64,000 nt of DNA. Origin: Bacillales bacterium (lineage in GTDB: Bacteria > Bacillota > Bacilli > CAJFEE01). Positions within the stretch are counted from its first letter, which is position 1, and the number at the start of each line of letters is the position of its first letter. Where the stretch lies: the NCBI GenBank assembly GCA_029256085.1, contig JAQSYP010000003.1, forward strand, positions 3,891 to 67,890, given 5' to 3'. Of the stretch, positions 14,946 through 37,148 are shown one piece after another. Under the pieces are notes generated by a model. The model ran no database searches, was not told where the DNA came from, and saw only the letters and a program-made list of their open reading frames with translations. Made by a program: the position numbers and the translations under genes.

Positions 14946-14974
14946 TTGTAAATTTGTCATAGTAGTGATAAAAT
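14946..14974 (+). promoter_or_regulatory. σA-type promoter for the fdhD-fdh operon: TTGTAA, 17-bp spacer, TGaTAAAAT extended -10. Flanked by repeats GTCATAG (×2), TAGTGA, TAGTCAC and GTCACTA (14956-15037).
   Basis: Hexamer spacing of 17 bp with a TG at -15. The repeats overlap the -10/+1 region (candidate operator). Confidence 0.45.
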
Positions 14975-15148
14975 CGTCATAGAATAGTCACAAAATAGAA
15001 ATATTTTGGAAATAATTTCATAACGATTTTGTCACTATTTTTATTTTTGGGGTTTAATAAAAACCTCTAACCCCTGGCCAGGTAAATGGACAGGTTTATA
15101 TTTTGGAATAAATTGTAAGCGATTTCTTAAACTTCAGGAGTGATACTT

Positions 15149-15877: not shown

Positions 15878-15953
15878 TAATTTGGTAACTCCTCTTATTT
15901 CTAGGAGTTCATATATAAACACAAAATTGATTATTTAAAGGAGGGGAAATGGG

Positions 15954-18926: not shown

Positions 18927-18928
18927 TC

Positions 18929-19732: not shown

Positions 19733-20396
19733 ACAAGTAAAACGTTTTTCTAAACCGGTTATTTTAGCTCACTGGTTAAATGCCTTCACATTTATGTTAT
19801 TGTATTTTACAGGATTACCATTATATTCAGAATGGTTTGATTGGGTTTACGTATTATTTGGTGGACCAGAAAATGCTAGATTTGTACATCATTATGGTGG
19901 TTTAGTATTTATTTTACCAACTGTGTTCATCTTATTAGTAGATGCTAAAAGTTTCACTCACTGGATGAAACAAATCTTCAGTTGGAAAGCACATGACTTT
20001 GCATTCTTTAAAGGTTTCGCTAAAGAATTCTTTGGTCTTCATGCTGATATTCCGAAGCAAGATTTCTATAATGCTGGTGAAAAGATTAACTCGTTATTAC
20101 AAGTATTCACTGCATTCTTACTAATCGTTTCAGGATTATTAATGTGGTTTGCAGATTTCTTTACTACAACTCTAGGCTTCTCACAATCAATTATTCTGCT
20201 TGCATACCCAATGCACTCAATCGCATTCGGTTTATCAGTTGCTGTAGTAGTTGGTCACGTTTACCTATCTATCGGACATCCGAATTCAAGACCATCAATG
20301 CAAGGTATCCTTAAGGGTTATATCTCTGAAGATTACGCTAAGGCTCACCATGGTAAGTGGTATGACGAGGAAGTTAAAGATAATTTAAAAATGTAA
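19725..20396 (+). CDS. fdnI: Formate dehydrogenase cytochrome b gamma subunit (FdnI-like).
   Basis: 4-TM protein with His ligands; overlaps the fdnH end. GGAGG RBS 8 nt upstream of the ATG at 19725. Confidence 0.8.
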   Translation: MSKQVKRFSKPVILAHWLNAFTFMLLYFTGLPLYSEWFDWVYVLFGGPENARFVHHYGGLVFILPTVFILLVDAKSFTHWMKQIFSWKAHDFAFFKGFAKEFFGLHADIPKQDFYNAGEKINSLLQVFTAFLLIVSGLLMWFADFFTTTLGFSQSIILLAYPMHSIAFGLSVAVVVGHVYLSIGHPNSRPSMQGILKGYISEDYAKAHHGKWYDEEVKDNLKM

Positions 20397-20487
20397 TTAA
20401 GTTTTTTTGAAGGAATGGCTACACTGGTGGTAGCCTTCCTTTATTTAACTAAAAATCCTATTGTTTCTAATTAGCGAGGTGCAAAAA

Positions 20488-21285
20488 ATGGGTCAACAAA
20501 ATGTTGTATCAAAAGAATACCAAGAGCTTCAAGAACAGTTAAACTCATGGCATAAGAATTGGTCAGAAAAGGTAAATGCAGAAGACATAACTAAGTCTTC
20601 CCCAAAAATTAGCAATGACCTACCAATCTTGAGTCAAATAGAAGTAAATATTAATGAAGAAATATTATCAGAAATGTTTGCTGACTTAATTTTACTTTTA
20701 AATGAGATAACACCGAATTTAAAGTCTTCACTTGTAAAAGTGGAAAATATAAAGAGCGAAGAGTTAAAAAAATGGTTTGAAGAATCTGTGCGTTCTAATA
20801 ATCTATACTTTGAGAAATATGCTGAAGAAAATGAACTTGAGTCATGGATACCCCAATTTTTAGCAGAACATTTAATTCGCCCGTTTTTACACGTGATGAG
20901 TAAACAATTTGAAGACAAGCTTGAAGGAATTAATAACGGTATAGGATGTAAATTTTGTGGTGAACCAGTACGCCTAGCTAAACAAGGAGAGAACGGGAAA
21001 AAGGTAGTTGTATGTCCACGATGTGAGGCGTCATGGGAACACAAGAAGCTAGAGTGTGCTATTTGCGGTAACGATGACCACAAGGAGCTTACAATTATCA
21101 AAATAGATGATGATACTACGGCTCAAATTCAAGCATGTAAAAAGTGTAATGGATACCTAAAATTTGTAGAAGCAAGAAACTTATTTAGAAACCATTCACC
21201 TGAAATAGTTGACCTATTAACTATTCACTACGATTATGTAGCTCAGGAAAAGGGATATGGCGAAAGTATAGAGCAAAAAAACTAA
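20488..21285 (+). CDS. fdhE: Formate dehydrogenase accessory protein FdhE.
   Basis: Multiple CxxC rubredoxin-like motifs (CKFCGEP…CPRCE…CAICGN…CKKCNGY). Confidence 0.8.
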   Translation: MGQQNVVSKEYQELQEQLNSWHKNWSEKVNAEDITKSSPKISNDLPILSQIEVNINEEILSEMFADLILLLNEITPNLKSSLVKVENIKSEELKKWFEESVRSNNLYFEKYAEENELESWIPQFLAEHLIRPFLHVMSKQFEDKLEGINNGIGCKFCGEPVRLAKQGENGKKVVVCPRCEASWEHKKLECAICGNDDHKELTIIKIDDDTTAQIQACKKCNGYLKFVEARNLFRNHSPEIVDLLTIHYDYVAQEKGYGESIEQKN

Positions 21286-21293
21286 GGTGTAGC

Positions 21294-21908
21294 ATGGATA
21301 AACTTAATATATCTAATATAATCTTAGCTGGCGGTCTCTCGTCAAGAATGGGAACAAATAAGGCAGAATTAAAAATTGGTGAACACACTGTTATTGAACG
21401 TATAATAAAAGAATTTGAACCACCTACTAACGAATCAATTATCGTTACAAATAATCCAAATTGCTATAATTCGTTTAATTGGAAATGTGTTAGCGATATT
21501 TACTTTCAAAAAGGTCCACTAGGTGGAATACATGCAGGACTGTTAAGTAGCACAAATGAAATTAATTTTGTTATATCGTGTGATATGCCTTTTCCAAATG
21601 CTAAACTTCTAACAAAAATGCTTGAACATATACACTATAACGATATAGTAGTTCCAGTAATAAATGAAAAGTTACACCCCTTATTTGGGTTGTACAAGAA
21701 GTCAATACTAACTGAATTGATTGATTGCTTGGAGCAAGATAATCTCCGTGTTAGAAAATTGTATGAGAAGTTAAGCACGTATTATATTACTGAGAAGGAA
21801 TTATATACTAAGAGTGAGTTAGAAAAAGGTATATATGAGATAGATTTTTTTAATATGAACACTATGAATGATTATTCAAAAGCAAAAAGCTTGTATAGTG
21901 AGTTTTGA
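21294..21908 (+). CDS. mobA: Molybdenum cofactor guanylyltransferase MobA-like.
   Basis: N-terminal ILAGGLSSRMG nucleotide-binding motif. Confidence 0.75.
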   Translation: MDKLNISNIILAGGLSSRMGTNKAELKIGEHTVIERIIKEFEPPTNESIIVTNNPNCYNSFNWKCVSDIYFQKGPLGGIHAGLLSSTNEINFVISCDMPFPNAKLLTKMLEHIHYNDIVVPVINEKLHPLFGLYKKSILTELIDCLEQDNLRVRKLYEKLSTYYITEKELYTKSELEKGIYEIDFFNMNTMNDYSKAKSLYSEF

Positions 21909-21941
21909 TGCCGCTAAGTATTGAAAGAAGGAAACATATAT

Positions 21942-23171
21942 ATGAAATTTTTCAATGTTCATACAGTTGAAGAAGTATTTAACTTAATCGACGATAAAAT
22001 CAAACCTATAGAATATACTGAAAAAGTTCTAATTAGCAACGCATTAAACCGAATATTATCAGTAGATATTTACTCTAATGAAAATGTTCCTAACTTTAGA
22101 CGTTCTACTGTAGATGGTTATGCTGTAAAAGCAGATGATACCTTTGGATCAAGCGAGTCAATGCCTGGTTTTCTTAACTTAATCGGTGAAATTAAGATGG
22201 GTGAGGAACCTTCTAGTGAAGTTAATTACGGAGAGGCAATGTATGTTCCAACAGGAGGAATGGTTCCTGACGGTGCTACTTCAGTAGTGATGATTGAACA
22301 CTGCGAAGAAATTGAATCACTTTTGAATGTTTATAGACAAGTTGCCCCGAATGAAAACATAATTCAGGTAGGGGAAGATATAAAAGTTAATGAACTTGTA
22401 CTGTCAAAAGGGAAGAAACTCCGAGCTCAAGAGCTTGGTGCGCTTTCTGCCTTAGGTATACTAGAAGTTGAAGTTTATAAGAAGATAAAAGTCGGCTATA
22501 TTTCAACTGGTGATGAGATAGTTACACCTGACACCATTAAATTAGAAATGGGTAAGGTTAGAGATGTTAATGCAATTACTCTCAACTCTATTTGTAAGCA
22601 AATGGATATTGATTTTATTTACGGAGGTATTGTTAAAGATAGTGAAGATGAGCTTTACAGAGTTACATCGAATTTATTAGCAGAAGTTGATTGCCTAATA
22701 CTTTCAGGTGGTAGTTCAGTTGGAACTAAAGACTACTCTGTAGATGTTATAAATAAATTAGGCAAACCAGGGGTATTTACCCATGGGATTTCTGTAAAAC
22801 CAGGCAAACCGACGATATTATCTATCGCAAATGACAAGCCTGTTATTGGATTACCGGGCCATCCTGTTTCTGCTTTAATAATATTTAAAGTGTTTGGAAC
22901 TACTATCCTTAATAAATATTCTGGTAACCGTAGTAGCTTATTTATTAATAAGATAACAGCTAAACTTACGAAAAATATCCCTTCAGCTGCTGGTAGGGCA
23001 GACTATATAAGAGTTAGCCTAGAAAAAACGGAAACTGGCTGGGATGCGACTCCTATTTTTGGGAAGTCAGGATTAATATCAACTTTAGTATCAAGTGAAG
23101 GTATTGCTGAAATTCCATCGGCTAAAGAAGGGGTTTTAGCTGGAGAATTAATAGAAGTAATACTTTTCTAA
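21942..23171 (+). CDS. moeA: Molybdopterin molybdotransferase MoeA.
   Basis: MoeA N, MoCF-biosynthesis and C-terminal domains. GAAGGA RBS before the ATG at 21942. Confidence 0.8.
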   Translation: MKFFNVHTVEEVFNLIDDKIKPIEYTEKVLISNALNRILSVDIYSNENVPNFRRSTVDGYAVKADDTFGSSESMPGFLNLIGEIKMGEEPSSEVNYGEAMYVPTGGMVPDGATSVVMIEHCEEIESLLNVYRQVAPNENIIQVGEDIKVNELVLSKGKKLRAQELGALSALGILEVEVYKKIKVGYISTGDEIVTPDTIKLEMGKVRDVNAITLNSICKQMDIDFIYGGIVKDSEDELYRVTSNLLAEVDCLILSGGSSVGTKDYSVDVINKLGKPGVFTHGISVKPGKPTILSIANDKPVIGLPGHPVSALIIFKVFGTTILNKYSGNRSSLFINKITAKLTKNIPSAAGRADYIRVSLEKTETGWDATPIFGKSGLISTLVSSEGIAEIPSAKEGVLAGELIEVILF

Positions 23172-23189
23172 CGGGTGTGTGATGCAAAT

Positions 23190-25106
23190 ATGATAAAAAA
23201 TAAATATGAACGTAAAATTTATCTATCAGATATTCCTAGGGAAAAGGCTCTTGAGCAAATATTATCACAATATAAACCGAAACTTAGGACAGTAACTAAA
23301 AATGCGACTGAGTCGATAGGAAACGTAACAGCCGAACCAATTTATGCAAAGAGATCTGTACCACATTATCATGCATCTGCAATGGACGGTATAGCGGTTA
23401 TAGCAGAAAGAACATTTGAAGCTAATGACAATAATCCTTTGCGCTTAATAAAAGGTGAAGACTACTGCATAGTAGATACTGGTAATGAAATAAAGTCTCC
23501 ATATGATTCAGTAATAATGATTGAAAATGTACAAGAGATTGATGAAAATATAGTAGAAATAATAGAACCAGCTACCCCATGGCAACATATTAGACCGATC
23601 GGTGAAGATATGGTCCAAGGTGAAATGCTATTTACGCAAGGTCATAAAATCAGACCAGTGGATCTTGGGGTACTTCTTTCAAGTGGCAATCAATCTGTAA
23701 AGGTTGTTATGCCTCCTAAAGTCACAATAATACCTACTGGTAATGAGCTAGTTTATCCTAGTGAAACAATTGAACCTGGAAAGATTGTTGAATTTAATGG
23801 ATCTGTTATGGCTGCATTCGTATCAGAGTGGGGCGGGCAACCTTTATTACACGAAATAGTAAAAGATAGTCCAGATTCAATTAAAGAAGCGCTTATAAAT
23901 GCTTCGAGGGATTCTGATGTAGTTATAATTAACGCAGGATCGTCTGCTGGATCAAAAGATTATACAGTTCATATAATCTCTGAAATTGGGAAAGTATTTA
24001 CACATGGCGTTGCAACTAGACCAGGAAAACCTGTTATCCTAGGAGAAATTAACGGAACAATAGTAGTTGGATTACCAGGATATCCAGTTTCAGCATATTT
24101 AGCATTGGAATGGTTTATAAAACCGTTAATAAATAAATATAACAATAATAACCATTGTAATAGGCATAAAATTAGTGCTAAACTTGGTCGTAGAATTGTG
24201 TCTACAATGGGTTCAGAAGATTTTGTACGTGTGACTTTAGGGAATATTAATGGAGAGCTAATTGCTAATCCATTGACTAGAGCTGCAGGAGTTACAATGT
24301 CGCTAGTGAAAGCAGATGGTTTACTTGTTGTTCCATCTAACGTCGTTGGTTTTGAACAAGGTGATTATGTTGAAATTGAACTTTATAAATCTATTGAAGA
24401 TATAGAAAAGTCAATAACTATAACAGGTAGTCATGATCTTGCCATAGATATATTGCACTCAATTCTAAAAAATACTAATACTGAGCAGACAATTACATCT
24501 ACTCACGTCGGAAGTATGGCAGGAATAATGGCAATTAAAAAAGGCGAGGCTCATATCGCTGGAATTCATCTGTTAGATCCAGAAACAAAAACGTATAATA
24601 TTCCTTACGTAAAAAAGCATCTAAAAGATAATAATATTGTTATATTGCCTTTTGTAAAAAGAATGCAAGGATGGATTACATCTAGTAATAATTTAAATGA
24701 ATATAGAAATGTTTCTGACCTTGTAAAAAACAAAATACCGTTTGTAAATAGACAAAAAGGTGCAGGAACTAGGATTCTCTTTGACTTGATACTAAGAGAC
24801 AATAACATTAAGCCATCTGAGATTCTTGGATATAATCGTGAGATGTTTACGCATCTAAGTGTTGCTGCAGAAGTTGCACAAACAAATAGTGTAGGACTTG
24901 GAATAGCTCCAGCTGCAGAAGCCATGGGATGTAGTTTCATACCAGTAGCTGAAGAATCATATGATTTACTTATGACTAAGGAATTTTTTGAAAGTCATTC
25001 TGGACAAACGTTATATAAAATCATAACTAGTTTAGAATTCAAACAAGAGGTTGAAAAAATTTCAGGTTATAAGGTTGATACTAATATAGAACCAATTTAT
25101 ATTTAA
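23190..25106 (+). CDS. MoeA-like molybdopterin molybdotransferase fused to a C-terminal periplasmic-binding-protein-like (substrate-binding) domain. The start is uncertain (23175 GTG versus 23190 ATG).
   Basis: N-terminal two-thirds is paralogous to MoeA. The C-terminal ~230 aa resembles a PBP/LysR-substrate-binding fold. Confidence 0.7.
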
Positions 25107-25128
25107 AGAGAAAAAGGGGGACGTTTTA

Positions 25129-25326
25129 ATGTTCAACAATATCGGTGTACCAGGGCTTATTTTAATTTTATTCTTAGTACTAATAATTTTTGGTCCAAAA
25201 AAGCTTCCTGAAATTGGTAGAGCTTTTGGGCAAACATTAAAAGAGTTTAAGAAATCTACTAATGAATTAACAAAAGACATTACAGAAGAAGTAGCAGAAG
25301 TTAAAGACGAGATTAAAAAATTATAA
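25129..25326 (+). CDS. tatA: Twin-arginine translocase subunit TatA/E.
   Basis: 65-aa single TM plus amphipathic helix, with the [11 protein letters not shown] signature. Confidence 0.9.
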
Positions 25327-25421
25327 TTTAAAAATTAAAAGACGAATCTTATATGATTCGCTTTTTCTTTTTGGGCAAAAATATTAAAATTAAGATTATA
25401 CAATATCTTACGAGGTGAGAA

Positions 25422-26840
25422 ATGAATAACCTTTTACGTCAATTGCCACCAATTCATGAGTTACAAAGAAACGATGCATACGAAATATTAAAGAATAAGC
25501 TCAAAGTTGGTGATGAACTAATAACGAATATATTAAAAATAGAAGTCGATGATCTAAGAAAGTTAATCCTTTCGAAAGGGAATTTAGATATTGATAATAT
25601 TGAAAAATATCTATTTGAAAAAGTTAAACACCATTTAAGTAGACTACTACAACCAAGATTAAAAAGAGTAATAAATGCAAGTGGAACAGTCTTACATACA
25701 AATTTAGGTCGATCAAGATTAAGTGACGACGCTATTACAAGAGTTGTTGAAGTAGCTAGAAATTATTCAAACCTTGAATATAATTTAGCTGAGGGTAAGC
25801 GTGGCTCCCGTCATTCAATAATTGAAGAATGGGTTAAATTAGCAACAGGTGCTGAGGCAGCTATGGTAGTAAATAATAATGCAGCAGCCGTTTACCTAAT
25901 TCTTAGAGCACTCGCTAAAGACAAAGAAGTTATTGTTTCGAGGGGGCAATTAGTCGAAATAGGTGGTTCATTTAGAGTTTCATCAATTATGGAGGAAAGT
26001 GGAGCCAAACTGAAAGAGATAGGCACAACTAATAAAACTCATATTAGCGACTATGAAGCTGCTATAACTGAAAATACAGCAATGCTATTAAAAGTACATA
26101 CTTCAAACTTTAAAATTATTGGATTTACAAAAACTGTAGAGTCCGATGAGTTAGTTCAGTTAAGTAATAAACACGACAATGTCATTGTCTATGAAGATTT
26201 AGGCAGTGGTGTTTTATATGACTATAAGAAAGATTGCATTGGGGATGAACCTCTAGTTAAAAGTGTATTAGATCAAGGTGTTGATATTGTTTCTTTTAGT
26301 GGAGATAAACTTCTTGGTGGACCTCAAGCAGGAATAATTGCGGGTAAAAAGCATCTAATTGAAAAACTAAAGAAAAATCAACTAGCACGAGTTCTTAGGG
26401 TTGATAAAATGACCTTAGCTGCATTAGAGGCAACAATATCCGCCTATGTTAGAGGAAATGAATATGCTAAAAGTATTCCAACCGTTAGGAATCTAGTTGA
26501 AACAAAGGATGTTGTTCATCAAAAGGCAATGATGATGGTTGATAAATTAGAATCTACTTCTAGAGGTTATTCTACACGTATCATAGAAGATGTTTCTGAA
26601 ATAGGTGGAGGTACTATGCCTGGTACAACTATCCCAACTTATGTTGTAGAGGTAAAGCATGATGTGGTTTCTACATCATTAATAGATAAAAAACTACATG
26701 AAAATGAAGTAAGTATTATTGGAAGAATCCAAAATGATAAAATCATATTCGATTTACGTACGGTAGAAATTGATGAGATACAAACGATTATAAATGCATT
26801 AATAAAACTTGAGGAACAATATGATTTATCCAGAAAATGA
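25422..26840 (+). CDS. selA: L-seryl-tRNA(Sec) selenium transferase SelA.
   Basis: PLP-lysine motif FSGDKLLGGPQAG. 472 aa. Confidence 0.9.
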   Translation: MNNLLRQLPPIHELQRNDAYEILKNKLKVGDELITNILKIEVDDLRKLILSKGNLDIDNIEKYLFEKVKHHLSRLLQPRLKRVINASGTVLHTNLGRSRLSDDAITRVVEVARNYSNLEYNLAEGKRGSRHSIIEEWVKLATGAEAAMVVNNNAAAVYLILRALAKDKEVIVSRGQLVEIGGSFRVSSIMEESGAKLKEIGTTNKTHISDYEAAITENTAMLLKVHTSNFKIIGFTKTVESDELVQLSNKHDNVIVYEDLGSGVLYDYKKDCIGDEPLVKSVLDQGVDIVSFSGDKLLGGPQAGIIAGKKHLIEKLKKNQLARVLRVDKMTLAALEATISAYVRGNEYAKSIPTVRNLVETKDVVHQKAMMMVDKLESTSRGYSTRIIEDVSEIGGGTMPGTTIPTYVVEVKHDVVSTSLIDKKLHENEVSIIGRIQNDKIIFDLRTVEIDEIQTIINALIKLEEQYDLSRK

Positions 26841-28107: not shown

Positions 28108-28485
28108 TTATTTAACAACTTCATAATTCCAAGACTGCATTCCACCTTCTACATTATATACAGTCTTAAATCCATTGTTTATAAGAATATCACTTGCACT
28201 TTGTGAACGATTACCACTTCTGCATATTACGAGAATTTCTTTTTCTTTATCTAATTCTCCTAATTGTGCTTCTAAAGTCTGAAGTGGAAATAGCTTCGCT
28301 TCAGGTATATGACCTGAATTATATTCTTCTATTGTTCTTACATCAATTAGAACTACTTCATCTGGATTAGAACCTAGCATGTTTTTCGCTTCCTCAGTTG
28401 TGACATTTTTCCAACCAGAACTACTACAACCACTGATAAATACTGAGATTAAAACAAAGAAAATAATTTTACTAAAAAATTTCAT
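28108..28485 (-). CDS. Rhodanese-domain lipoprotein (single-domain sulfurtransferase).
   Basis: Lipobox LISVFISGC. Active-site loop CRSGNRS. Confidence 0.8.
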   Translation of the reverse strand: MKFFSKIIFFVLISVFISGCSSSGWKNVTTEEAKNMLGSNPDEVVLIDVRTIEEYNSGHIPEAKLFPLQTLEAQLGELDKEKEILVICRSGNRSQSASDILINNGFKTVYNVEGGMQSWNYEVVK

Positions 28486-28781
28486 ATTTAGTCACCTCGT
28501 AAGTATACCCTTTAGGGTATTATATATATATAAATTATAAGTTAACATAAGTAAGGGTACAATTATAATTTAGAAGTTTTGTAACAAAAATCTAGCATTT
28601 TGAACAATTTGTGAAAAAAGTATCGAGAATTTATCGATTTATCTCCAGTACACAGAATGTTCAAACCTGAGCATATGAACTTTAATAGTTTCCTATTATA
28701 TTTATAGTAAGAACCTATTATGTAAGCGTTTATATGCGGCTTGAAATTAACATGTCAGATATTTTTTAAGGGGTTGAATCA

Positions 28782-29804
28782 ATGTTTAAGAAATTAATAG
28801 CTACAGTAACGACTATGATATTAGTTCTATCACCTTTTACATTAGTAGCTAACGCAGAAACTAATACGGTGGATCTTCAGAAATTCCCGTACAAATCAGT
28901 TGCAATCCAGGTTATGCCAGAATATGATTATCCACAAAATTATCCAACGGATCAGCCAGTTGTGTTAGTGGGGTACTATGGTACGATGACTAATAAAACC
29001 GGAAGTGATTACAATGGAGAAATCGCTATTCCACTTCCAGTAAACGAAAAATATTTTCAAATATATATAGCTGCAGAATTCCCAGAGGAAAATAAGCCTG
29101 AAGTTCAGAGACCTTATAAGATCGATAAAGAAAAAGGTCTTATAACTTGGAAACCTTCTAATCCTATTAAAAAGGATGCAGATTATAAGTTTGTAGTAGA
29201 ATATTATTCGAATCCGATAGAAGTTGGAGATTCTAAGAAGTTTCCATTTGTATATACTGCACCTGCAAATGTAGATGCAATCGATATTCTGTTCTTTGCT
29301 CCGGCAAAATCAACAGATTTCAAAACAGATATTCCAGCAACAACAGTTTCTAAGACTGACTATAATGAAACACTTCTTGCATACCAGTATAAAAACCTAA
29401 AGGCTGGAGAGAAGAAAGCTTTTAACGTTTCTTATGTAAAAAAGGACAACTCTTCAACACTATCGAATATTAAACAGAACCCACCTGAAGCGAATCAATC
29501 AGGGTCAAATACTACAACTACAGAAAGTAGACCTATAATTGACGCTGTAGGGGCTTCGATAATTGGTGGATCTTTAATAATAATGGGATTTTTCATTTTC
29601 TTAGGATATAAACAAAAAGGTTCAACACCACCTTCTAAGAGTAATGTAAAGCACAAGAACAGTTCAACAAAGCAGCAACAGTCGGCACCAAAGAAAAATA
29701 ATAGCGTGTCAGTAATGGATGAGAAGAAAAAGCTTAGAAAAATGTTGCTTAATGGCGAGATAGATCAAGAAACTTACGAACTTAAACTATCAAAATTAGA
29801 ATAA
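28782..29804 (+). CDS. Uncharacterised bitopic membrane protein with a signal peptide, an ~250-aa extracytoplasmic domain, one TM and a cytoplasmic SHOCT-like tail. Paralogous in architecture to the 33287-34279 product.
   Basis: Signal peptide …LVANA. TM GASIIGGSLIIMGFFIFLGY. C-terminal LRKMLLNGEIDQETYELKLSKLE (SHOCT pattern). Confidence 0.6.
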   Translation: MFKKLIATVTTMILVLSPFTLVANAETNTVDLQKFPYKSVAIQVMPEYDYPQNYPTDQPVVLVGYYGTMTNKTGSDYNGEIAIPLPVNEKYFQIYIAAEFPEENKPEVQRPYKIDKEKGLITWKPSNPIKKDADYKFVVEYYSNPIEVGDSKKFPFVYTAPANVDAIDILFFAPAKSTDFKTDIPATTVSKTDYNETLLAYQYKNLKAGEKKAFNVSYVKKDNSSTLSNIKQNPPEANQSGSNTTTTESRPIIDAVGASIIGGSLIIMGFFIFLGYKQKGSTPPSKSNVKHKNSSTKQQQSAPKKNNSVSVMDEKKKLRKMLLNGEIDQETYELKLSKLE

Positions 29805-29819
29805 TAGGGGGAAAATAAG

Positions 29820-30284
29820 ATGAGTAAAAATGCAAAAATGATTGGTGGATCTCTAGTAATTGCAGTTGCGATTTTATTCCTATTAATTGCGGCAACACCA
29901 GGTTCAAGTGGAGTAGAGCTTAAATTAGCTGAACTACTAAAAGATCAACAAGAGTACACAGATGATTATGTAACTGTTGAAGGATTATTAATCGAGGATT
30001 CTATTAAATGGGATGCAGATAAAATCCAACTTAAATTTGACGTTCAAGATGAGAACGGTAAGAAGTTAAGTGTAATATATAACGGTGTTAAACCTGATAA
30101 TTTTTCTGAAGGTGTAATTACAATTTTACAAGGTAGTCCTGACGAGGAAAAAGCTGGTTTATTCCATGCAGAAACTGTAAAAACAAGATGTCCTTCAAAA
30201 TATGAAGGTGAGGACATGAAGAACTACGATCCAGAAGCTCACAAAGATAAGTTAAATAAAAAATCAGAAGAAGAGACAAAATAA
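29820..30284 (+). CDS. ccmE: Cytochrome c-type biogenesis heme chaperone CcmE, variant with a C-x3-Y (CPSKY) heme-binding motif in place of H-x3-Y.
   Basis: N-terminal TM. OB-fold core aligns with E. coli CcmE ([21 protein letters not shown] ~ [34 protein letters not shown] ~ AKEVLAKHDENYT). Confidence 0.8.
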   Translation: [154 protein letters not shown]

Positions 30285-30317
30285 AACTAAACTAGTAAAT
30301 TGAAAGGTGAAAACCAA

Positions 30318-32300
30318 ATGTATCTATTAGGAAACATATCAATTTACCTAGGATTAGCATTATCAATTTATTCACTAATTGTTTTAGTACTTGGTGTTAT
30401 TAAACAAAACCAAAGACTAATTAACAGCGGTAAAGGTGCTGCAATTAGTGTATTTATTTCTATGGCTACTGCAACTGCAGTAATGCTATACTTCCTAGGT
30501 ACATCTAACTTTCAGATTGAATACGTAAGAGATTACACAAGTTCTGAACTTCCAATGGGTTATAAGTTATCAGCACTTTGGGCAGGAAACTCTGGGTCTT
30601 TAATGCTTTGGAATTTATTCTTAACGATGTATATTGTTATGATTGTATTTTCAAGAAAACTTAAAGGGACTCCGTTTATTCCTTATGTTACGGCTATACT
30701 AATGGGTAATGCAGTGTTTTTCTACTTTGTATTAGGGTTTGTTGCTAAACCTTTCGTTCTGTTAGAGACAGCTCCTGCAGAAGGACACGGCTTAAATCCG
30801 ATGTTACAAAATCCTGGTATGTTAATACATCCAGTAACACTTTATTTAGGTTATGTTGGACTAGCTGTACCATTTGCATTTGCTATGGCAGCTTTAATAA
30901 TCAAAAATATGGATGATTTCTGGATTAAGATAACGAGAAGATGGACAATCATCGCTTGGTTATTCTTGAGTTTAGGTAATATTTTAGGTGCTCAGTGGGC
31001 ATACGTGGAATTAGGATGGGGTGGCTATTGGGCATGGGATCCAGTAGAAAATGCATCATTCATGCCATGGCTAACAGCTACTGCATATCTACACTCAGTA
31101 ATGATTCAAGAACGTAAAAACATGTTAAAAGTTTGGAATATAGCATTAATTATTACTTCGTATGCATTAACGTTATTTGGGACTTTCCTAGTACGAAGTG
31201 GAGTTCTTACATCAGTACATGCTTTTGCGAACTCTTCACTAGGTACATGGTTCTTAGTGTATATGACTATCGCATTACTAGGCGGACTTTATGTTGTGTT
31301 TAGTAGATATCATTTAATTAAACGCGATGCTGGTCAATTCCAGTCATACTTATCAAAAGAAAGTAGCTTCCTATTTAATAACCTTATCTTAGTTGGATCT
31401 GCTTTTGCGGTATTCTGGGGAACAATATTCCCAATCGTATCAGAAGCTATTAAAGGTAAGAAAGTAACAGTAGGTATACCTTTCTTTAACACTGTACAAG
31501 CTCCGTTACTTTTATCATTAATTTTTATCATGGCAGTTTGTCCACTAATCGCTTGGCAGAGATCTTCTGGGAAAAACTTAGTTAAGAATTTCTTAATACC
31601 GGCATTAGTAAGTTTAGGGATAGCAATACTTTTATTTATACTTGAAGTTACAAAGCCTTGGGCATTAATTAGTTATACGGTAGTTGCATTTATGATTCTT
31701 ACTCACGTTTCAGAATTTATCAAAGGAACAAGAGCTAGAATGAAAATGACAGGTGAAATGATTCCTGTAGCATTATATCGTTTAGCTGTTAGAAATCGCA
31801 GAAGATACGGTGGGTATATCGTCCATTTTGGTATTGCGTTAATAGCACTAGGCATCATTGGTTCACAGAACTATGAGACAGAAATAATGAAAACAGTATC
31901 TCAAGGTGAAGTAATTAGAATAAACAACTATGCTATTACTTATGAGAAATTAGATCAAAAGTCGGAAGGCATAAATGATATTATCTATGCTGATCTATCA
32001 ATTCAACACGCTGGAAAACCAATTGGTATTTTCGAACCTGAGAAGGTTTTCTACGGTAACTGGGATCAACCATCTACAGAAGTTTCTCTTTACAGTACAT
32101 GGAAAGAAGACTTATATATTACATTAAATAACTGGGAAGATGATGGACGAGCGACATTCCATATCAAGGTAATTCCAGGAATGCAGTTAATGTGGACAGG
32201 TTCTATATTATTAGTTATAGGAACGTTGTTTGCAATTTGGAGTGGTAAGTTTGGTAATATTACTCCAAGATACACAGGTAATCAAAAAGACGTATTTTAA
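30318..32300 (+). CDS. ccmF: Cytochrome c-type biogenesis protein CcmF (heme lyase subunit).
   Basis: WWD domain WGGYWAWDPVENASFMPWL. Polytopic, about 660 aa. Confidence 0.9.
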   Translation: MYLLGNISIYLGLALSIYSLIVLVLGVIKQNQRLINSGKGAAISVFISMATATAVMLYFLGTSNFQIEYVRDYTSSELPMGYKLSALWAGNSGSLMLWNLFLTMYIVMIVFSRKLKGTPFIPYVTAILMGNAVFFYFVLGFVAKPFVLLETAPAEGHGLNPMLQNPGMLIHPVTLYLGYVGLAVPFAFAMAALIIKNMDDFWIKITRRWTIIAWLFLSLGNILGAQWAYVELGWGGYWAWDPVENASFMPWLTATAYLHSVMIQERKNMLKVWNIALIITSYALTLFGTFLVRSGVLTSVHAFANSSLGTWFLVYMTIALLGGLYVVFSRYHLIKRDAGQFQSYLSKESSFLFNNLILVGSAFAVFWGTIFPIVSEAIKGKKVTVGIPFFNTVQAPLLLSLIFIMAVCPLIAWQRSSGKNLVKNFLIPALVSLGIAILLFILEVTKPWALISYTVVAFMILTHVSEFIKGTRARMKMTGEMIPVALYRLAVRNRRRYGGYIVHFGIALIALGIIGSQNYETEIMKTVSQGEVIRINNYAITYEKLDQKSEGINDIIYADLSIQHAGKPIGIFEPEKVFYGNWDQPSTEVSLYSTWKEDLYITLNNWEDDGRATFHIKVIPGMQLMWTGSILLVIGTLFAIWSGKFGNITPRYTGNQKDVF

Positions 32301-32309
32301 TTAAAGCAG

Positions 32310-32346
32310 CTGGGGGAGAGTCTTTCTCCCCAGAGCTTTTTTTGAG
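32310..32346 (+). terminator. Strong intrinsic terminator between ccmF and the ccmH-like gene.
   Basis: ctgggggagag-tctt-tctccccag hairpin followed by TTTTTTT. Confidence 0.65.
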
Positions 32347-32386
32347 TATATAAGGTATTTCAAAAGCTACCCAAGGGGGTAAAAAA

Positions 32387-32896
32387 ATGTGGGTTAGAAA
32401 GTTAATAGTTACACTGGTTGCCTTTTCTTTTCTAGGGTTTGGACAAATCGTTCAAGCTGAGGAGGAATTCGAACCATATAAGGATGAATACTATACTCCT
32501 GAATTTAGAGCAGTTGCTAGAAAAATTAAGTCTTTAGACAGTTGTTCGTCACTATATGATTGTCCAACAGGCCCATTAGTAAGAACCGCAAAACCAGATA
32601 TAGTTAAAATGATAAGTGAAGGTAAAACAACCGAAGAGATACTAGATTATTTCGTAGATACTTACGGTGAAGAAATTCTAATTGAACCAAAGAAAAAAGG
32701 TTTTAATATTGCAGCATACGCAGTTCCTGCAGCTATTATTGTTGGAGCAACAGGACTAATTGTATATGCAATAAGATTTTGGACAAGAACCTCTAGAACA
32801 GAGGAAGAAGAAAATGTTGTAGAAGATTCTCAAGATGAAACAGAATCAGAAATTATGAAAAAAATGATAGACGAAGAACGAAAAAAGTTTCTTTAG
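32387..32896 (+). CDS. ccmH: CcmH/CycL-like cytochrome c biogenesis protein with a non-canonical Cys motif (C-SSLYD-C instead of LRCxxC).
   Basis: Signal peptide; GKTTEEILDYFVDTYGEEIL aligns with the CcmH core GKSKKEIVDYMVARYGNFV; a C-terminal TM follows. Confidence 0.65.
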   Translation: MWVRKLIVTLVAFSFLGFGQIVQAEEEFEPYKDEYYTPEFRAVARKIKSLDSCSSLYDCPTGPLVRTAKPDIVKMISEGKTTEEILDYFVDTYGEEILIEPKKKGFNIAAYAVPAAIIVGATGLIVYAIRFWTRTSRTEEEENVVEDSQDETESEIMKKMIDEERKKFL

Positions 32897-32907
32897 GATG
32901 TGAAAAC

Positions 32908-33285
32908 ATGGAAGGTCAATTAACTACAATTGCAATGATAGCGTCTGCACTTCTTGTTTTAGGTTGTTTATATTTAACTATTTCTCCATTTTTCGTGCTT
33001 GATGAAGGTACATTCGAGTTGAAATTTACTAAAAATAAGAATAAGACTCAAAGTCACAAAGAAGCACTATACTCAACACTAAACGAAATTGAGATAGAGC
33101 ATAAAATGGGTAAAATCTCTGATGACGATTATAAGGAATTAACAAACAAGTATGAGACTATGATCGCGAAAATGATGAAAGACGATGATTTTGTTTCTAT
33201 TGATAATATTGATAACAAACTATTAAGTGAGATAGAAAAAGAAATTCAAGAAGAGCTGGACAAGAGGGAAAAAGGAGGTAAGTAG
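32908..33285 (+). CDS. Small membrane protein (N-terminal TM) with a cytoplasmic SHOCT-like domain.
   Basis: TM at residues 7-30, then MGKISDDDYKELTNKYETMIAKM (SHOCT pattern). 125 aa. Confidence 0.5.
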   Translation: MEGQLTTIAMIASALLVLGCLYLTISPFFVLDEGTFELKFTKNKNKTQSHKEALYSTLNEIEIEHKMGKISDDDYKELTNKYETMIAKMMKDDDFVSIDNIDNKLLSEIEKEIQEELDKREKGGK

Positions 33286-33286
33286 T

Positions 33287-34279
33287 TTGAAAAAATTCTT
33301 AAAGATTGCTTTAACCGCGCTACTTTCTCTACCCTTATTTTCTAACACAGTTCTAGCGGCAGCAAATATAGTCTATGAAAGTAATCATGTTATTTTTCAA
33401 CCAATCAATGAAAATACAATTAAGATAACATCAATGGCTACACTAGTAAATAGTGGGGATGATAAATTTGAAGGTAAAGTAGGGTATGGGTTACCTCTAA
33501 ATTACTCAAATCTTCAAATTGGCGATCAATCAATTAAGCCAACGAATGAGGCAAATGCTTTTACAATCGACGCTACTATAGCTCCAAATGAAAAGAAATC
33601 AATTTCATACTCTAACGATCAAGGCTTAACTAATAATGTAGCGAAAATTGATTTTGTCTATCCTCATGATGTACAAGTATTAAATATTCTAATACCTAAA
33701 GATACTGCTGAGGTAACTATTACTGGAGCAAAGTTCGAAGATAAAGGTGAATTCCCTTTTGAAAGTACAACTTTAAAACAATACGAAATTAAAGACTTAA
33801 AAGCTAATACAAAAGTTACAATTGATTACAAAAGAAACCCTAATGCACCAGCGCAAACTGGAACTGAAGGCACTCAAAACAACCAGAACCAAGAAACTGA
33901 TCAAAGTAATGTAACAAGAAAAGCACCACAATTTCATAACCCTGGACATTTAAGAATGTGGAACCAATCTGCTTTAAGTAGCTTTGACCCACACATTCTT
34001 TTGATAGTTCTAGGAATTATATTGGTGGCTATAGTTGTCTATTTTGCTTATTTTGAAATGAAACGCAGAAAACAACTAGAACACGTGAAATCTGATCAAG
34101 AAGAAAGAGTATTTAAACAACTTATTGCTAAGAGAAGTGCTATAATGAACAAGATTTTAGAGTTGGAAGAAGAATATAACTCTGGAAACATATCTGATGA
34201 AGATTACACTAAGAAAATGGAAGCATATAAGAATCACCTAATCCAAGTCAAACTTAGCCTTCGCGATTTTGTTGAATAA
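33287..34279 (+). CDS. Uncharacterised bitopic membrane protein (signal peptide, extracytoplasmic domain, TM, cytoplasmic SHOCT-like tail); paralogous in architecture to the 28782-29804 product.
   Basis: TTG start with a GGAGG RBS. Signal peptide …TVLAAAN. TM ILLIVLGIILVAIVVYFAYF. C-terminal SGNISDEDYTKKMEAYKNHLIQ. Confidence 0.6.
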   Translation: MKKFLKIALTALLSLPLFSNTVLAAANIVYESNHVIFQPINENTIKITSMATLVNSGDDKFEGKVGYGLPLNYSNLQIGDQSIKPTNEANAFTIDATIAPNEKKSISYSNDQGLTNNVAKIDFVYPHDVQVLNILIPKDTAEVTITGAKFEDKGEFPFESTTLKQYEIKDLKANTKVTIDYKRNPNAPAQTGTEGTQNNQNQETDQSNVTRKAPQFHNPGHLRMWNQSALSSFDPHILLIVLGIILVAIVVYFAYFEMKRRKQLEHVKSDQEERVFKQLIAKRSAIMNKILELEEEYNSGNISDEDYTKKMEAYKNHLIQVKLSLRDFVE

Positions 34280-34296
34280 TGATTGGAGTGCAACCA

Positions 34297-35010
34297 ATGA
34301 TTAAAATTGATAATTTAATAAAACGTGTTGGTGACAAAGTTATTTTAAAAGGTGTTTCACTTAATATAACAAAAGGTGAAACAGTAGGAATTCTTGGACC
34401 AAATGGTGCGGGTAAAAGTACACTTTTAAAGGTAATTGCTACTTTACTAAAGCCTACATCAGGGGAAGTTACTATTGACGGGTTAGACCTGAAAAAGGAT
34501 CCTATTAAAATTAAAAGTAAACTAGGGTATTTACCACATGCTAGCTTATTATATGATCACTTTACACCTTATGAAAATCTAAAGTTCTTTTCTAAAGTGT
34601 ATTACTTAGATAATGTTGAAGAAAGAATTCATAAACTTATAGATGATGTCGGTTTAAGGCTATTTACTCATGAACCAGTTAAATCATTCTCTAGAGGTAT
34701 GGTTCAAAGAATTGCAATTGCAAGATCTATTATACATGATCCTGAAATACTACTTTTAGACGAACCACATACCGGCTTAGACCAACAGGCAATTGGTATA
34801 CTTAACAACGTCGTTGCGAAACTTCAGGAAAGAGATGTTACAACTCTTATCGTAACTCATGATTTTTTACAAGCAGCAAAAGTATGCGATAGGATAGTAA
34901 TAGTAAGAAATGGTAGGATAGCAGACGATTTCCTGCTAGAAGGACAAGATATAAACCTTTTACAGAAACGATATCAATCGGTCGTAGAGGGGGATTCTAA
35001 TGCTATTTAA
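34297..35010 (+). CDS. ccmA: Heme exporter ATP-binding protein CcmA (ABC). An alternative start at 34279 overlaps the upstream stop.
   Basis: Walker A GPNGAGKST and ABC signature. Confidence 0.85.
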   Translation: MIKIDNLIKRVGDKVILKGVSLNITKGETVGILGPNGAGKSTLLKVIATLLKPTSGEVTIDGLDLKKDPIKIKSKLGYLPHASLLYDHFTPYENLKFFSKVYYLDNVEERIHKLIDDVGLRLFTHEPVKSFSRGMVQRIAIARSIIHDPEILLLDEPHTGLDQQAIGILNNVVAKLQERDVTTLIVTHDFLQAAKVCDRIVIVRNGRIADDFLLEGQDINLLQKRYQSVVEGDSNAI

Positions 35011-35677
35011 AGGTGCAATGGCTTTAGCCTGGAAAGATCTTTATACTGAATGGAAGACAAAACAAACTATAAGTACGATGCTTATTTTTGCGGGATTAGT
35101 TGTAATTGTATTTAGTTTTGCTTTTGATCCTATGAACACGACAGTTAAAGCAATAATTCCTGGATTGATTTGGGTAATTATTGTGTTTGCAGGTTTATTA
35201 GGACTTAACCGCTCCTTTACTTCTGAGGGCAAGAATGACACAATACACGCACTTATAGTTGCTCCATTAGATCCTAGTAGTATCTATCTTGGGAAGTTCA
35301 TTTCAAATCTTGTTATGATACTTATAGTTGAAATTATTTCAATACCGTTCCTTTTTATCTTATTTGATTTTAAATTTCATGCTAATCTTTTATATTTTAT
35401 TTTAACTATTTTTATTGGAACATTTGGATTCGTTAGTGCAGGAACATTTCTAGCAGCATTAAGCTCAAACTCAAGAAGTTCAGAGATGCTACTCCCAATA
35501 ATTCTGTTTCCAATATCGACTCCAATATTAATAGGTGCTGTTCAAGCAACTAAAATACAATTAATTAGCCCAGATAAATTTGCTAGTGCGATTTCATGGA
35601 TGCAATTAATTACAGCCTACGATTTAATAATTTTCGTAGCGTGCTTTATACTATATGAATATGTTCAGGAGGTGTAG
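35000..35677 (+). CDS. ccmB: Heme exporter permease CcmB.
   Basis: 6-TM CcmB family. Start overlaps the ccmA stop (ATGCTATTTAA). Confidence 0.8.
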   Translation: MLFKGAMALAWKDLYTEWKTKQTISTMLIFAGLVVIVFSFAFDPMNTTVKAIIPGLIWVIIVFAGLLGLNRSFTSEGKNDTIHALIVAPLDPSSIYLGKFISNLVMILIVEIISIPFLFILFDFKFHANLLYFILTIFIGTFGFVSAGTFLAALSSNSRSSEMLLPIILFPISTPILIGAVQATKIQLISPDKFASAISWMQLITAYDLIIFVACFILYEYVQEV

Positions 35678-35679
35678 TC

Positions 35680-36429
35680 ATGAAAAAATATCAAGATATA
35701 GAACTAGACTATGCAAAAGGAGTACAACCAGTTTCCACAATCCATAAGCTTTTAACGTATACAACTGCGATTTTATTTATTGTACTAGTATACATGGCAT
35801 TCATCTACTCACCAGTTGAAAAAACGATGGGACCAGTTCAAAAAATATTTTATGCACATGTTCCTTCTGCGTGGATTGCTGGTGTAGCATTTTTAGGAGT
35901 TTTTATTTTAAGTATTGCATTCCTTATAACTAGAAAAAGAATATACGATTTATATGCTGGAATCTCAGCTGAAATCGGTGTTGTATTTACTACAATCGTT
36001 TTAACTACTGGGCCAATTTGGGGACGCTCATCATGGAATAGCTGGTGGTCATGGGAACCAAGACTAACAACTACACTAATCTTATGGTTTATCTATTTAG
36101 CATACGTAATGATTAGACATATGGATTCTCCTTGGGATAAGAGAGCAAGACTAGCTGCAGTATTCGGTATAATAGGATTCTTAGATGTACCAATTGTATT
36201 CTTTGCTATCCGTTGGTGGAATACAAAAATGCATCCAATAGTATTTGGTGAAGGTAAAGACCAAAGTGGTGGTGGTCTTGAACCAGAAATGTTAGCAACA
36301 TTATTTGTTGGTTTAGGAGCATTTACGTTATTGTACATTGTACTATTGCAAAAAGGTGTAATGATTGAGAAAGCAAAAATAGCAGTACAGGCTTATAAAG
36401 AAAAATTACAAGATAAATTAGTTCGATAG
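35680..36429 (+). CDS. ccmC: Heme exporter protein CcmC.
   Basis: WWD motif WNSWWSWEPRLT. Confidence 0.85.
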   Translation: MKKYQDIELDYAKGVQPVSTIHKLLTYTTAILFIVLVYMAFIYSPVEKTMGPVQKIFYAHVPSAWIAGVAFLGVFILSIAFLITRKRIYDLYAGISAEIGVVFTTIVLTTGPIWGRSSWNSWWSWEPRLTTTLILWFIYLAYVMIRHMDSPWDKRARLAAVFGIIGFLDVPIVFFAIRWWNTKMHPIVFGEGKDQSGGGLEPEMLATLFVGLGAFTLLYIVLLQKGVMIEKAKIAVQAYKEKLQDKLVR

Positions 36430-36441
36430 GAGGCTACTAAT

Positions 36442-36567
36442 ATGGGATATTTAGCATCTGCTTACGGAGTAACTTGGTTTTTAATAGCAGCTTACATGCT
36501 TTTTCTAGGAAAAAAGCAAAGTGACATCGTAAAAGAAATTAAATTTTTAAAAGAGTTAGACAAATAA
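36442..36567 (+). CDS. ccmD: Heme exporter protein CcmD (41 aa, single TM); not in the ORF track.
   Basis: GGAGG RBS 6 nt upstream. MGYLASAYGVTWFLIAAYMLFLGKKQ… small TM peptide between ccmC and ccmG, as in canonical ccm operons. Confidence 0.6.
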   Translation: MGYLASAYGVTWFLIAAYMLFLGKKQSDIVKEIKFLKELDK

Positions 36568-36585
36568 AAAGGGGGCGTTCCATCT

Positions 36586-37104
36586 ATGGGTTCGCGCAAA
36601 ATACTACAAATCGTAGTTCTTGCCATTGTAGTTGGTTTACTAGCTTTCTTTGCCCTTGGCTTAAAATCTAACTTCAACAAAATAGAAAAAGGCGATCAAG
36701 CTTTCCTATTTGAAGCTGATAACATGGATAAGAAGAAGGTAAATCTAAACGATTATAAGGGTCAAGTAATTGTTTTAAACTTCTTTACTAGTTGGTGTGA
36801 TCCGTGTCGTGACGAAGTGTATGAGCTTGAGGAATTTAACAAAGAAGTTAAAGACTCTGGTAAGGCTGTTTTCTTTATTGTAGATAGAGGAGAAACACAA
36901 AAGCACGTTCAGAAGTTTATTGATGAATTTGATACTAAATCAGAGTACTTATTTGACTATAATCACTCGATATCAGAGAAATATGGCGTTGTTGGACAAC
37001 CCGAGACTTTAATAATTGATAAAAAGGGTGTTCTTAGAGAACATTTATTAGGACCGACAACAACACAGGAATTACTTTTCCTTGTGGATAAGTACAATAA
37101 ATAA
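36586..37104 (+). CDS. ccmG: Thiol:disulfide interchange protein CcmG/DsbE (membrane-anchored thioredoxin-like).
   Basis: WCDPC active site with an N-terminal TM. Confidence 0.85.
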   Translation: MGSRKILQIVVLAIVVGLLAFFALGLKSNFNKIEKGDQAFLFEADNMDKKKVNLNDYKGQVIVLNFFTSWCDPCRDEVYELEEFNKEVKDSGKAVFFIVDRGETQKHVQKFIDEFDTKSEYLFDYNHSISEKYGVVGQPETLIIDKKGVLREHLLGPTTTQELLFLVDKYNK

Positions 37105-37109
37105 TACAA

Positions 37110-37148
37110 TGGATGTGTCTAGTGTAAACTGGACACATCTTTTTTTAG
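37110..37148 (+). terminator. Intrinsic terminator after ccmG.
   Basis: gatgtgtctag…ctggacacatc hairpin followed by TTTTTTT. Confidence 0.65.

Follow-up and report, generated by a model that had tools for sequence, protein, structure and literature searches.

CcmI/CycH of the proteobacterial System I pathway for cytochrome c maturation (Ccm) is bipartite: it comprises a membrane part, CcmI-1, and CcmI-2, a tetratricopeptide repeat (TPR) chaperone of apocytochromes, and has an NrfA-specific paralogue, NrfG. The CcmI-1 segment ties the proteobacterial protein to CcmF and CcmH. The TPR domains of CcmI and NrfG are known apocytochrome and NrfA chaperones, CcmI of Shewanella also binds NrfA, and the 2025 review that summarizes these data places the maturation of NrfHA under System II (PMC12285233). 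A variant of System I with a CxxxY-type CcmE has been described for archaea and Desulfovibrio (Allen et al. 2006, as cited in PMC9084895), and a 2022 study of Methanosarcina raises the non-orthologous replacement of CcmD, CcmH and CcmI as a question (PMC9084895). In Bacillus azotoformans, a cluster named 'ccmEFHABC' (BAZO_03265-03300) is linked to nrfHA, and its description neither names nor discusses extra genes (Heylen and Keltjens 2012, PMC3475470); eight locus tags for six named genes would fit two unnamed genes between ccmH and ccmA in this cluster, which we know from that paper only. Here we analyze a System I cluster in a 64,000-nucleotide stretch of contig JAQSYP010000003.1 from a Bacillales bacterium (the window), in which three genes for membrane proteins, denoted X1, X2 and X3, are embedded among ccm genes.

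Eleven same-strand open reading frames (ORFs) spanning positions 28782-37104, in the order X1-ccmE(CxxxY)-F-H'-X2-X3-A-B-C-D-G, look like a single System I operon (Table 1). Genes were identified by Pfam and NCBIfam profile scans, which recognized all Ccm components and yielded no above-threshold family for X1, X2 or X3. A first-pass annotation had delineated the three ORFs, placed them tightly spaced within a ccm cluster and regarded them as undescribed. All three are present, and their neighbours were identified as ccmE, ccmF, a ccmH-like gene, ccmA, ccmB, ccmC and a ResA/CcmG-like gene. The intergenic gaps measure 15 nucleotides between X1 and ccmE, 15 between ccmE and ccmF, 86 between ccmF and the ccmH-like gene, 11 between the latter and X2, and 1 between X2 and X3, and the stop codon of X3 overlaps the earliest possible start of ccmA. 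We consider it probable that X1, X2 and X3 are dedicated Ccm accessory components. To the more specific reading, in which they are lineage-specific accessory subunits of a variant System I and jointly replace CcmI, we assign a probability of roughly 0.45; the variant is of a Bacillales type and belongs to mostly low-GC (guanine plus cytosine), single-membrane bacteria. Replacement of CcmI is favoured because X2 appears to be related to CcmI while the clusters examined lack a TPR protein, because X1-like domains recur in association with c-type cytochromes, also away from ccm clusters, because nrfHA or a dihaem cytochrome gene adjoins the cluster in relatives, and because the architecture of X1 and X3 parallels that of Ost1 and PIG-T.

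Close homologues of X1 (84) and X3 (107) come nearly all from Neobacillus and allied Bacillus species, and some of the X1 orthologues are labelled 'SHOCT domain-containing' in UniRef. A scan for X3 with one genome per GTDB species gave 100 relatives, 80 of which were retrieved with their loci; all 80 belong to the Neobacillus/allied Bacillus group, and two further Neobacillus loci brought the set to 82. The arrangement with the ccm genes is not due to chance, since the order X1-E-F-H-X2-X3-A-B-C-G is complete in 69 of these 82 loci (Neobacillus, Mesobacillus and Bacillus species); most of the remainder are cut contigs. X2 was found in every one of the 82 Neobacillus/Mesobacillus-type loci. Median identities to the window proteins over this set are 43% for X1, 42% for X2 and 34% for X3, as compared with 62-68% for CcmE, F, A, B and C, and the X proteins thus evolve faster than the Ccm core.

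The X1 family extends well beyond this group. An exhaustive hidden Markov model (HMM) search with an X1 profile returned 389 clusters (50% identity) at E <= 1e-3 and 60 at E <= 1e-30, the proteins being for the most part 310-360 amino acids (aa) long. Few of the distant clusters carry a species name, namely Evansella clarkii, Bacillus shivajii, Salipaludibacillus agaradhaerens and Microaerobacter geothermalis. In all six remote relatives of X1 that were examined between E 5e-74 and 2e-25, the gene stands directly upstream of ccmE or ccmF, with nrfHA just before in two cases. The orders seen in distant loci are nrfH-nrfA-X1-E-F-H-X2-ABC-D-G in L083, where X3 is missing; X1-E-F-X3-ABC-D-G in L086, without ccmH and X2; X1-F-H-X2-E-shortX3-ABC-D in L089; nrfH-nrfA-X1-E-F-H-X2-shortX3-ABC-D-G in Evansella clarkii (L090); X1-E-F-H-X2-X3-ABC-D in Microaerobacter geothermalis (L091); and X1-ccmE in L175. 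The linkage of X1 to ccm genes thus holds across 25-45% X1 identity, GC contents of 31-63% and rearranged ccm orders. The comparative case for a link to Ccm is close to the strongest that genomics can make. Judged by genomic association, that is co-location and co-orientation in divergent lineages, all three X proteins rank as Ccm components, and both the close and the distant loci bear out the conservation with ccm clusters elsewhere on which the first-pass annotation had made its proposal depend.

The link to CcmI comes from X2, which consists of one N-terminal transmembrane (TM) helix followed by a charged helical tail. Its top or sole match among 18,950 models is usually TIGR03142, the CcmI N-terminal model, with the match spanning the TM helix and the cytoplasmic segment. 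All 29 members of the X2 family match this model (best E 9.2e-6), as do 7 of 10 divergent X2-like proteins of other ccm clusters (best 22.6 bits), every one of them below the cutoff; X2 of the window scores 13.8 bits against a cutoff of 29.3 bits. Escherichia coli CcmH, used as the CcmI reference, lacks the TIGR03142 domain and does not align to X2, which makes it an uninformative control. Further points of likeness are the location of the X2 gene beside ccmH and ccmF, the proposed job of X1, X2 and X3 in tethering apocytochrome to CcmF/H, and a cluster that is otherwise without CcmI. A full CcmI has two TM helices and a periplasmic TPR domain. X2, in contrast, has a single hydrophobic segment and ends in a cytoplasmic tail, and we do not call it a CcmI because the second TM helix and the periplasmic domain are absent. 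X1 and X3 differ from CcmI in being separate proteins, in having a beta-sandwich instead of TPRs, and in their opposite polarity, the ectodomain being N-terminal to the TM helix. Neither Pfam nor NCBIfam matched a TPR domain in X1, X2 or X3, and no TPR protein is encoded in any ccm cluster examined. On sequence grounds, X2 appears better described as a remote CcmI-1 relative truncated after the cytoplasmic segment than as the TM-plus-SHOCT protein it had first been taken for; its length and single TM helix stand, and the consistent though sub-threshold match to TIGR03142 takes the place of the SHOCT label. Likewise, of the earlier suggestion that the X proteins substitute for CcmI or CcmH, we retain the first half; the cluster has a CcmH-like gene of its own, and nothing points to a stand-in for CcmH.

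X1 and X3 are cysteine-free. Both proteins, for which AlphaFold2 (AF2) models were obtained, start with a signal-peptide-like segment, followed by a large ectodomain composed entirely of beta structure, a single TM helix and a C-terminal tail that is helical; the signal peptide, the Cys-free ectodomain and the TM helix had been described at the outset. In X1, a beta-sandwich of ~200 aa is followed by a low-complexity linker, the TM helix and a two-helix SHOCT-like cytoplasmic tail. The predicted local distance difference test (pLDDT) score exceeds 90 over residues 30-230 of the X1 model and is ~90 over residues 28-183 of the X3 model. A direct BLASTP comparison of X1 with X3 was not significant (E 0.076). 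Alignment of the two families by hhalign, based on 32 X1 relatives and 33 X3 relatives, gave a probability of 93.8% and an E of 1.7e-7 over 252 columns spanning ectodomain, TM helix and tail, and the two AF2 models have an identical top match in the PDB. Because the profile alignment is significant and the best PDB match is the same, the claimed paralogy is supported as a distant one, visible at the profile and fold levels and not by pairwise search.

The cytoplasmic tails had been likened to the SHOCT domain (PF09851; Eberhardt et al. 2013, PMC3581485), for which a hypothesized role in oligomerisation was not supported by experiment. The X1 tail resembles SHOCT: helices 311-323 and 329-339 (pLDDT ~89-92) are modelled as a short C-terminal hairpin of ~28 residues with a G-x-I-D-x-E-T-Y turn. 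The hairpin of X3 is far longer (helices 235-298 and 304-329). Against PF09851, X1 scores 15.5 bits (E 0.014; gathering threshold 27 bits); sub-threshold matches were obtained for 21 of 58 wider X1-family members (best E 7e-4), with none of those scanned reaching 27 bits, and for only 4 of 33 X3 relatives (best E 0.0025). Pfam gave zero SHOCT matches for X2 and X3 of the window, and X2 matches the CcmI model instead. SHOCT membership of the X1 and X3 tails is thus weakly supported by sequence, and what survives of the assignment is the two-helix hairpin of X1. The X2 and X3 tails have a common short G-x-I-S-x-x-D-Y turn (BLASTP E 0.001). Since hhalign found no convincing relation of the X2 family to the X3 family (probability 3.8%) or the X1 family (0.5%), homology of all three tails is not claimed. 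In the metagenome locus L106 (63% GC), the X1-like (6819-7814) and X2-like (10907-11419) proteins both carry zinc-ribbon tails in place of the helical G-x-I-x-x-x-x-Y tails, a joint swap that hints, from a single lineage, at cooperation between the X1 and X2 tails. Zinc ribbons are also borne by the X2-like proteins of the X1-less clusters L108 and L110.

Foldseek searches with the X1 and X3 models identified Ost1/ribophorin I (E ~1e-7 to 1e-8, probability 1.00), with a structural alignment of ~290 columns that includes the TM helix and the cytosolic part; sequence identity is 9-13%, and 11-13% to Ost1. Further matches of this fold are PIG-T, TAF2, ITIH1 and, in M1 aminopeptidases, the N-domain that contacts the substrate. 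No cell-wall-binding fold is among the strong matches of the fold searches, which therefore did not assign an unrelated function of the kind that had been named as a possible refutation. Searches of PDB sequences with the X1 and X2 profiles gave nothing meaningful. Ost1 and PIG-T are companions of membrane enzymes whose substrates are exported polypeptides in the unfolded state, and X1 and X3 likewise accompany a membrane enzyme that modifies unfolded, Sec-exported chains. X1 and X3 share with Ost1 (PF04597) a signal peptide, a beta domain outside the cytoplasm, a single TM helix and short helices on the cytosolic side. In contrast to this agreement in fold and architecture, the Pfam model Ribophorin_I is matched by just 1 of 33 X3 relatives (E 0.025) and not by X1, and no STT3/AglB gene, which would point to an oligosaccharyltransferase, lies within 10 kb in any locus read. 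The models thus suggest a common fold and architecture of X1/X3 and Ost1, rather than family membership or specific common ancestry. Two leads on X1 and its homologues were discarded. The label 'DUF2207' given by NCBI to one homologue was not reproduced by Pfam at E <= 1. Conserved Met and His residues of X1 had been considered as haem ligands; M45 is variable in the wider family and P-x-D-x-x-H is lost in X1 of the window.

Several loci connect X1 to c-type cytochromes. In Evansella clarkii (L090, 7828-9811) and in an uncultured relative (L083, 448-2411), the genes next to X1 on its upstream side are nrfH and nrfA (pentahaem nitrite reductase). Neobacillus soli (L001, 9099-9782) and N. piezotolerans (L002, 8464-9123) have a gene for a dihaem cytochrome c (two PF00034 domains) ahead of the X1-ccm cluster, and its product may be a substrate of the system there. 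Among weak X1 relatives, P0307 and P0328 (L172, 6989-8521) are fusion proteins that also contain a zinc ribbon in the cytoplasmic part and end in a cytochrome c domain. The genes of P0328 and P0334 (L173, 2578-3588) come directly after genes for multihaem cytochromes, in surroundings that lack ccm genes. The window holds no convincing c-type cytochrome gene; nrfA is absent, and the only ORFs with CxxCH-type motifs are those of a 4Fe-4S protein and a 700-aa product. The cytochrome fusions and multihaem neighbours away from ccm genes, together with the adjacency of nrfHA in two lineages, would also suit a role after maturation, in which X1 and X3 anchor or scaffold finished cytochromes (NrfA/NrfH or dihaem cytochrome c) at the surface of a cell that has no outer membrane, and are co-expressed with the maturation genes yet not needed for haem attachment. 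We regard such docking as unlikely, because X1 and X3 follow the ccm genes and not the cytochrome genes, nrfHA being non-adjacent in the window and in Neobacillus bataviensis; because X3 is inserted between ccmH and ccmA with overlapping or 1-nucleotide junctions; and because X2, which bears a similar tail turn, appears to be related to a maturation factor.

A rival centred on haem arises from the juxtamembrane region of X3. The motif P-x-F-H-N-P-G-H-L-R-M-W..S.L..F-D-P-H of the window protein, with H217, H221 and H236, corresponds to the family motif F-H-N-P-G-H-(L/I/V)-(R/K)-x-W-x-x-(S/T)-(P/A)-L-x-x-x-(F/W)-(N/D)-P-H, which is retained in ~86 of 91 distinct sequences with three near-invariant His residues and an invariant Trp. 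By alignment and AF2, it is located immediately N-terminal of the TM helix at the outer membrane face. In Evansella and L089, 'X3' is reduced to 128-132 aa, in which a brief outer stretch bearing the motif leads into the TM helix and the hairpin on the cytoplasmic side. It is conceivable that this core binds or relays haem, possibly ligating the haem of Cys-linked holo-CcmE during hand-over to CcmF, with the ectodomains being secondary. The position and conservation of the His and Trp residues favour this explanation, as do the retention of motif, TM helix and tail as the only part of X3 in the reduced proteins and the unusual components of the system, namely CxxxY CcmE and a CcmH without CxxC, because of which the chemistry of haem transfer may differ from the canonical one. 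We nevertheless consider it less plausible than docking: in L086 the motif is degenerate, with all three His residues gone (TATPSDFEKMWQDSPFGFINPY) and the cluster otherwise intact, clusters of the L083 type do without X3 altogether, the motif is unlike those known haem-binding motifs that could be compared, and X1 would be left unexplained.

Co-occurrence of the X genes with the CxxxY type of CcmE had been proposed as a check. X1-linked CcmE carries C-P-S-(K/A)-Y (CPS(K/A)YE) in all eight proteins aligned. A metagenome scan seeded on ccmE alone, and hence blind to X1, provided 80 loci that were annotated with custom HMMs and fall into three classes. In the first, with an E-F-first order and a ccmE at least 37% identical to that of the window, every locus whose sequence extends far enough upstream has X1 there, directly adjacent (L092-L097, L099-L104, L106 and L138). 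The second, mostly high-GC, has the order ccmE-F-(H)-X2-like-ABC and no X1, relaxed searches included (L107, L108, L117 and L153). The third, which forms the majority, has the order ccmABC-E-F, a longer CcmF and none of the three X genes. X1 therefore implies a CxxxY CcmE in every readable case, and the converse fails; because most CxxxY loci lack X1, and indeed X2 and X3, X1 does not track CxxxY CcmE generally. Of the three, X2-like genes have the broadest distribution, followed by X1 and then X3. The three proteins are thus not equivalent: X1 is widely distributed, X3 is optional or reduced, and X2-like genes occur also in X1-less clusters. The cluster of the window resembles the described CxxxY variant in its C-P-S-K-Y in place of HxxxY, in a CcmH that is degenerate here and absent from some related clusters, and in the lack of a canonical CcmI. 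It differs in that the archaeal systems are streamlined to CcmABCEF, whereas the Bacillales-type cluster adds three proteins and keeps ccmD-like and ccmG-like genes.

In the favoured reading, X1, X2 and X3 would jointly do the job of the bipartite proteobacterial CcmI. X2 would provide the CcmI-1 part, with an N-out TM helix and a cytoplasmic helical segment. The TPR domain (CcmI-2) would be replaced by X1, together with X3 where present, as an extracytoplasmic beta-sandwich platform tethered to the membrane and holding unfolded Sec-exported apocytochrome beside the haem-ligation site of CcmF/H. Likely substrates of such a platform are NrfA/NrfH or the dihaem cytochrome c encoded beside the cluster in relatives. 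The tails with their common G-x-I-(S/D)-x-x-(D/E)-Y turn may assemble the three proteins together or onto the Ccm core, and X3 probably uses its His-rich motif, on the outer side of the membrane, to touch CcmE, CcmF or haem. A fuller version, argued by analogy, is a split non-orthologous CcmI substitute of single-membrane bacteria, in which X2, as a truncated CcmI-1-like anchor, recruits one or two Ost1-like proteins (X1, X3). These would present Sec-exported apocytochromes, and in particular NrfA and its CXXCK haem, to a lyase made of CcmF and CcmH' and working with Cys-linked CcmE; we put this forward tentatively and regard it as rather doubtful. If it were true, bacterial cytochrome maturation and eukaryotic/archaeal N-glycosylation would share the Ost1-like beta-sandwich as a general 'unfolded substrate presenter'.

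A number of observations weigh against CcmI replacement. The system must be able to work without the X3 ectodomain, as it is absent in Evansella and L089 and the whole of X3 is missing in L083. Weak X1 relatives occur in non-cytochrome contexts, P0270 next to a two-component system, an FtrD-like gene and MacB-type ATP-binding cassette (ABC) genes, and P0300 next to an HSP20 gene. One class of ccm clusters, from high-GC organisms, has an X2-like gene and no X1. X2 always remains under the TIGR03142 cutoff and has one TM helix instead of two, and the likeness of its tail to that of X3 is marginal by both BLASTP and hhalign. The beta-sandwich fold is widespread and the identity to Ost1 is low, so that the substrate-presenter analogy is suggestive at best. 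Finally, a CcmI-like chaperone is not obligatory, since archaeal CxxxY systems function with CcmABCEF alone (PMC9084895). Even so, these points do not lead back to unrelated envelope proteins, for instance of stress response or cell surface, co-transcribed with ccm in one clade by happenstance: the lack of any functional family assignment and the occurrence of the wider fold family beside FtrD-like/MacB ABC and HSP20 genes would permit this, yet the persistence of ccm linkage across identities, GC contents and gene orders and the independent pointer of X2 to CcmI make it highly improbable.

The remaining components of the operon are those of a System I cluster (Table 1). CcmF matches TIGR03145 and TIGR00353 with ~427-430 bits, under both cutoffs, and ccmA-ccmB-ccmC (34279-36429) represent the ABC module of haem export and CcmE loading, as identified by Pfam and NCBIfam. 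The two cysteines of the CcmH-like protein form C-x5-C, and Neobacillus orthologues have C-T-C-G-C-Q-D-H-Y-E-C-D-T-C at this place; the X1-linked clusters L086, L103 and L104 are without ccmH. The ORF at the ccmD position found no match in a Pfam search, and the same slot is filled in related loci by ORFs of 41-58 aa. The sigma-70-like promoter site that scores best ahead of X1 is no more than a fit to the consensus, and the count of such sites in the region is not above shuffle expectation. The GC content is ~34%. The GC-rich hairpin in the gap between ccmF and the ccmH-like gene may be an internal attenuator or RNA-stability element. A divergent rhodanese gene lies upstream of X1, as it does in Neobacillus piezotolerans (L002, 9157-9513). 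Farther upstream (13020-26840), selenocysteine and molybdenum-cofactor genes accompany those of an FdnGHI-like enzyme. In Microaerobacter (L091, 8005-11231), the slot of ccmG after the ccm cluster is taken by FtrD-like (PF10080) and MacB/FtsX-type ABC genes, and FtrD-like and MacB/FtsX-type genes also follow a non-ccm X1-like gene in the metagenome contigs L087 (11570-13422) and L088 (7036-10146).

Table 1. Features of the ccm region and its upstream neighbourhood, in window coordinates.
Feature	Position	Strand	Description
SelB	13020-14903
Molybdopterin subunit	16566-18926		ORF opens right after a stop codon; possible selenocysteine codon, N-terminal part 15954-16517
4Fe-4S subunit	18929-19732
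Cytochrome b561	19674-20396
Two MoeA genes	21921-25106
SelA	25422-26840
Rhodanese	28108-28485	-	divergent, upstream of X1
Sigma-70-like promoter match	28542-28569	+	TTAACA-16-TATAAT, 11/12
X1	28782-29804	+	340 aa; first operon gene; type I membrane protein
ccmE	29820-30284	+	CxxxY haem chaperone, 154 aa; C124-P-S-K-Y128; Pfam CcmE E 2e-21
ccmF	30300-32300	+	ccmF/nrfE-family haem lyase subunit, 666 aa; Pfam CcmF_C 1.4e-57, Cytochrom_C_asm 2.8e-37
Hairpin	32313-32331		8 pairs, GC-rich
ccmH-like	32387-32896	+	169 aa, without CxxC; Cys53 and Cys59 only; Pfam CcmH E 3.3e-17
X2	32908-33285	+	125 aa; N-out single TM helix, cytoplasmic helical tail; putative remote relative of CcmI-1 domain
X3	33287-34279	+	330 aa; TTG start preceded by strong Shine-Dalgarno (AAAGGAGGT)
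ccmA	34279-35010	+	243 aa; TIGR01189 136 bits, over cutoff
ccmB	35000-35677	+	225 aa; Pfam CcmB E 4.8e-31
ccmC	35680-36429	+	249 aa; TIGR01191 E 2e-39
ccmD-position ORF	36442-36567	+	41 aa; single TM helix, between ccmC and ccmG-like gene
ResA/CcmG-like	36586-37104	+	membrane-anchored thioredoxin, 172 aa; C71-x-x-C74
Terminator-like hairpin	37111-37140	+	intrinsic type, at operon end 3' of ccmG-like gene; 13 pairs and T run

System I ccm genes in Bacillus have already been reported; what is new is a monoderm-type System I with three undescribed accessory proteins. Our literature search found no paper on a Neobacillus ccm system and no description of the extra genes. We judge the system to be a new variant because the extra genes are undescribed, the published Bacillus cluster being named by ccmEFHABC only (PMC3475470), because X1 and X3 stand outside Pfam and NCBIfam families, and because NrfHA maturation has been assigned to System II.

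Taken together, X1 represents a sizeable unannotated family of 389 clusters with a confidently predicted fold and repeated links to c-type cytochromes. For variant System I pathways that lack canonical CcmH and CcmI, X1, X2 and X3 provide three concrete conserved candidates, and the replacement of CcmI becomes directly testable by genetics because these candidates are conserved in culturable Bacillaceae. In some Bacillales, nrfHA directly precedes a System I cluster, in contrast to the System II assignment made in the review (PMC12285233), and X1, X2 and X3 may govern the handling of the NrfA CXXCK haem in these nitrate-ammonifying soil bacteria.

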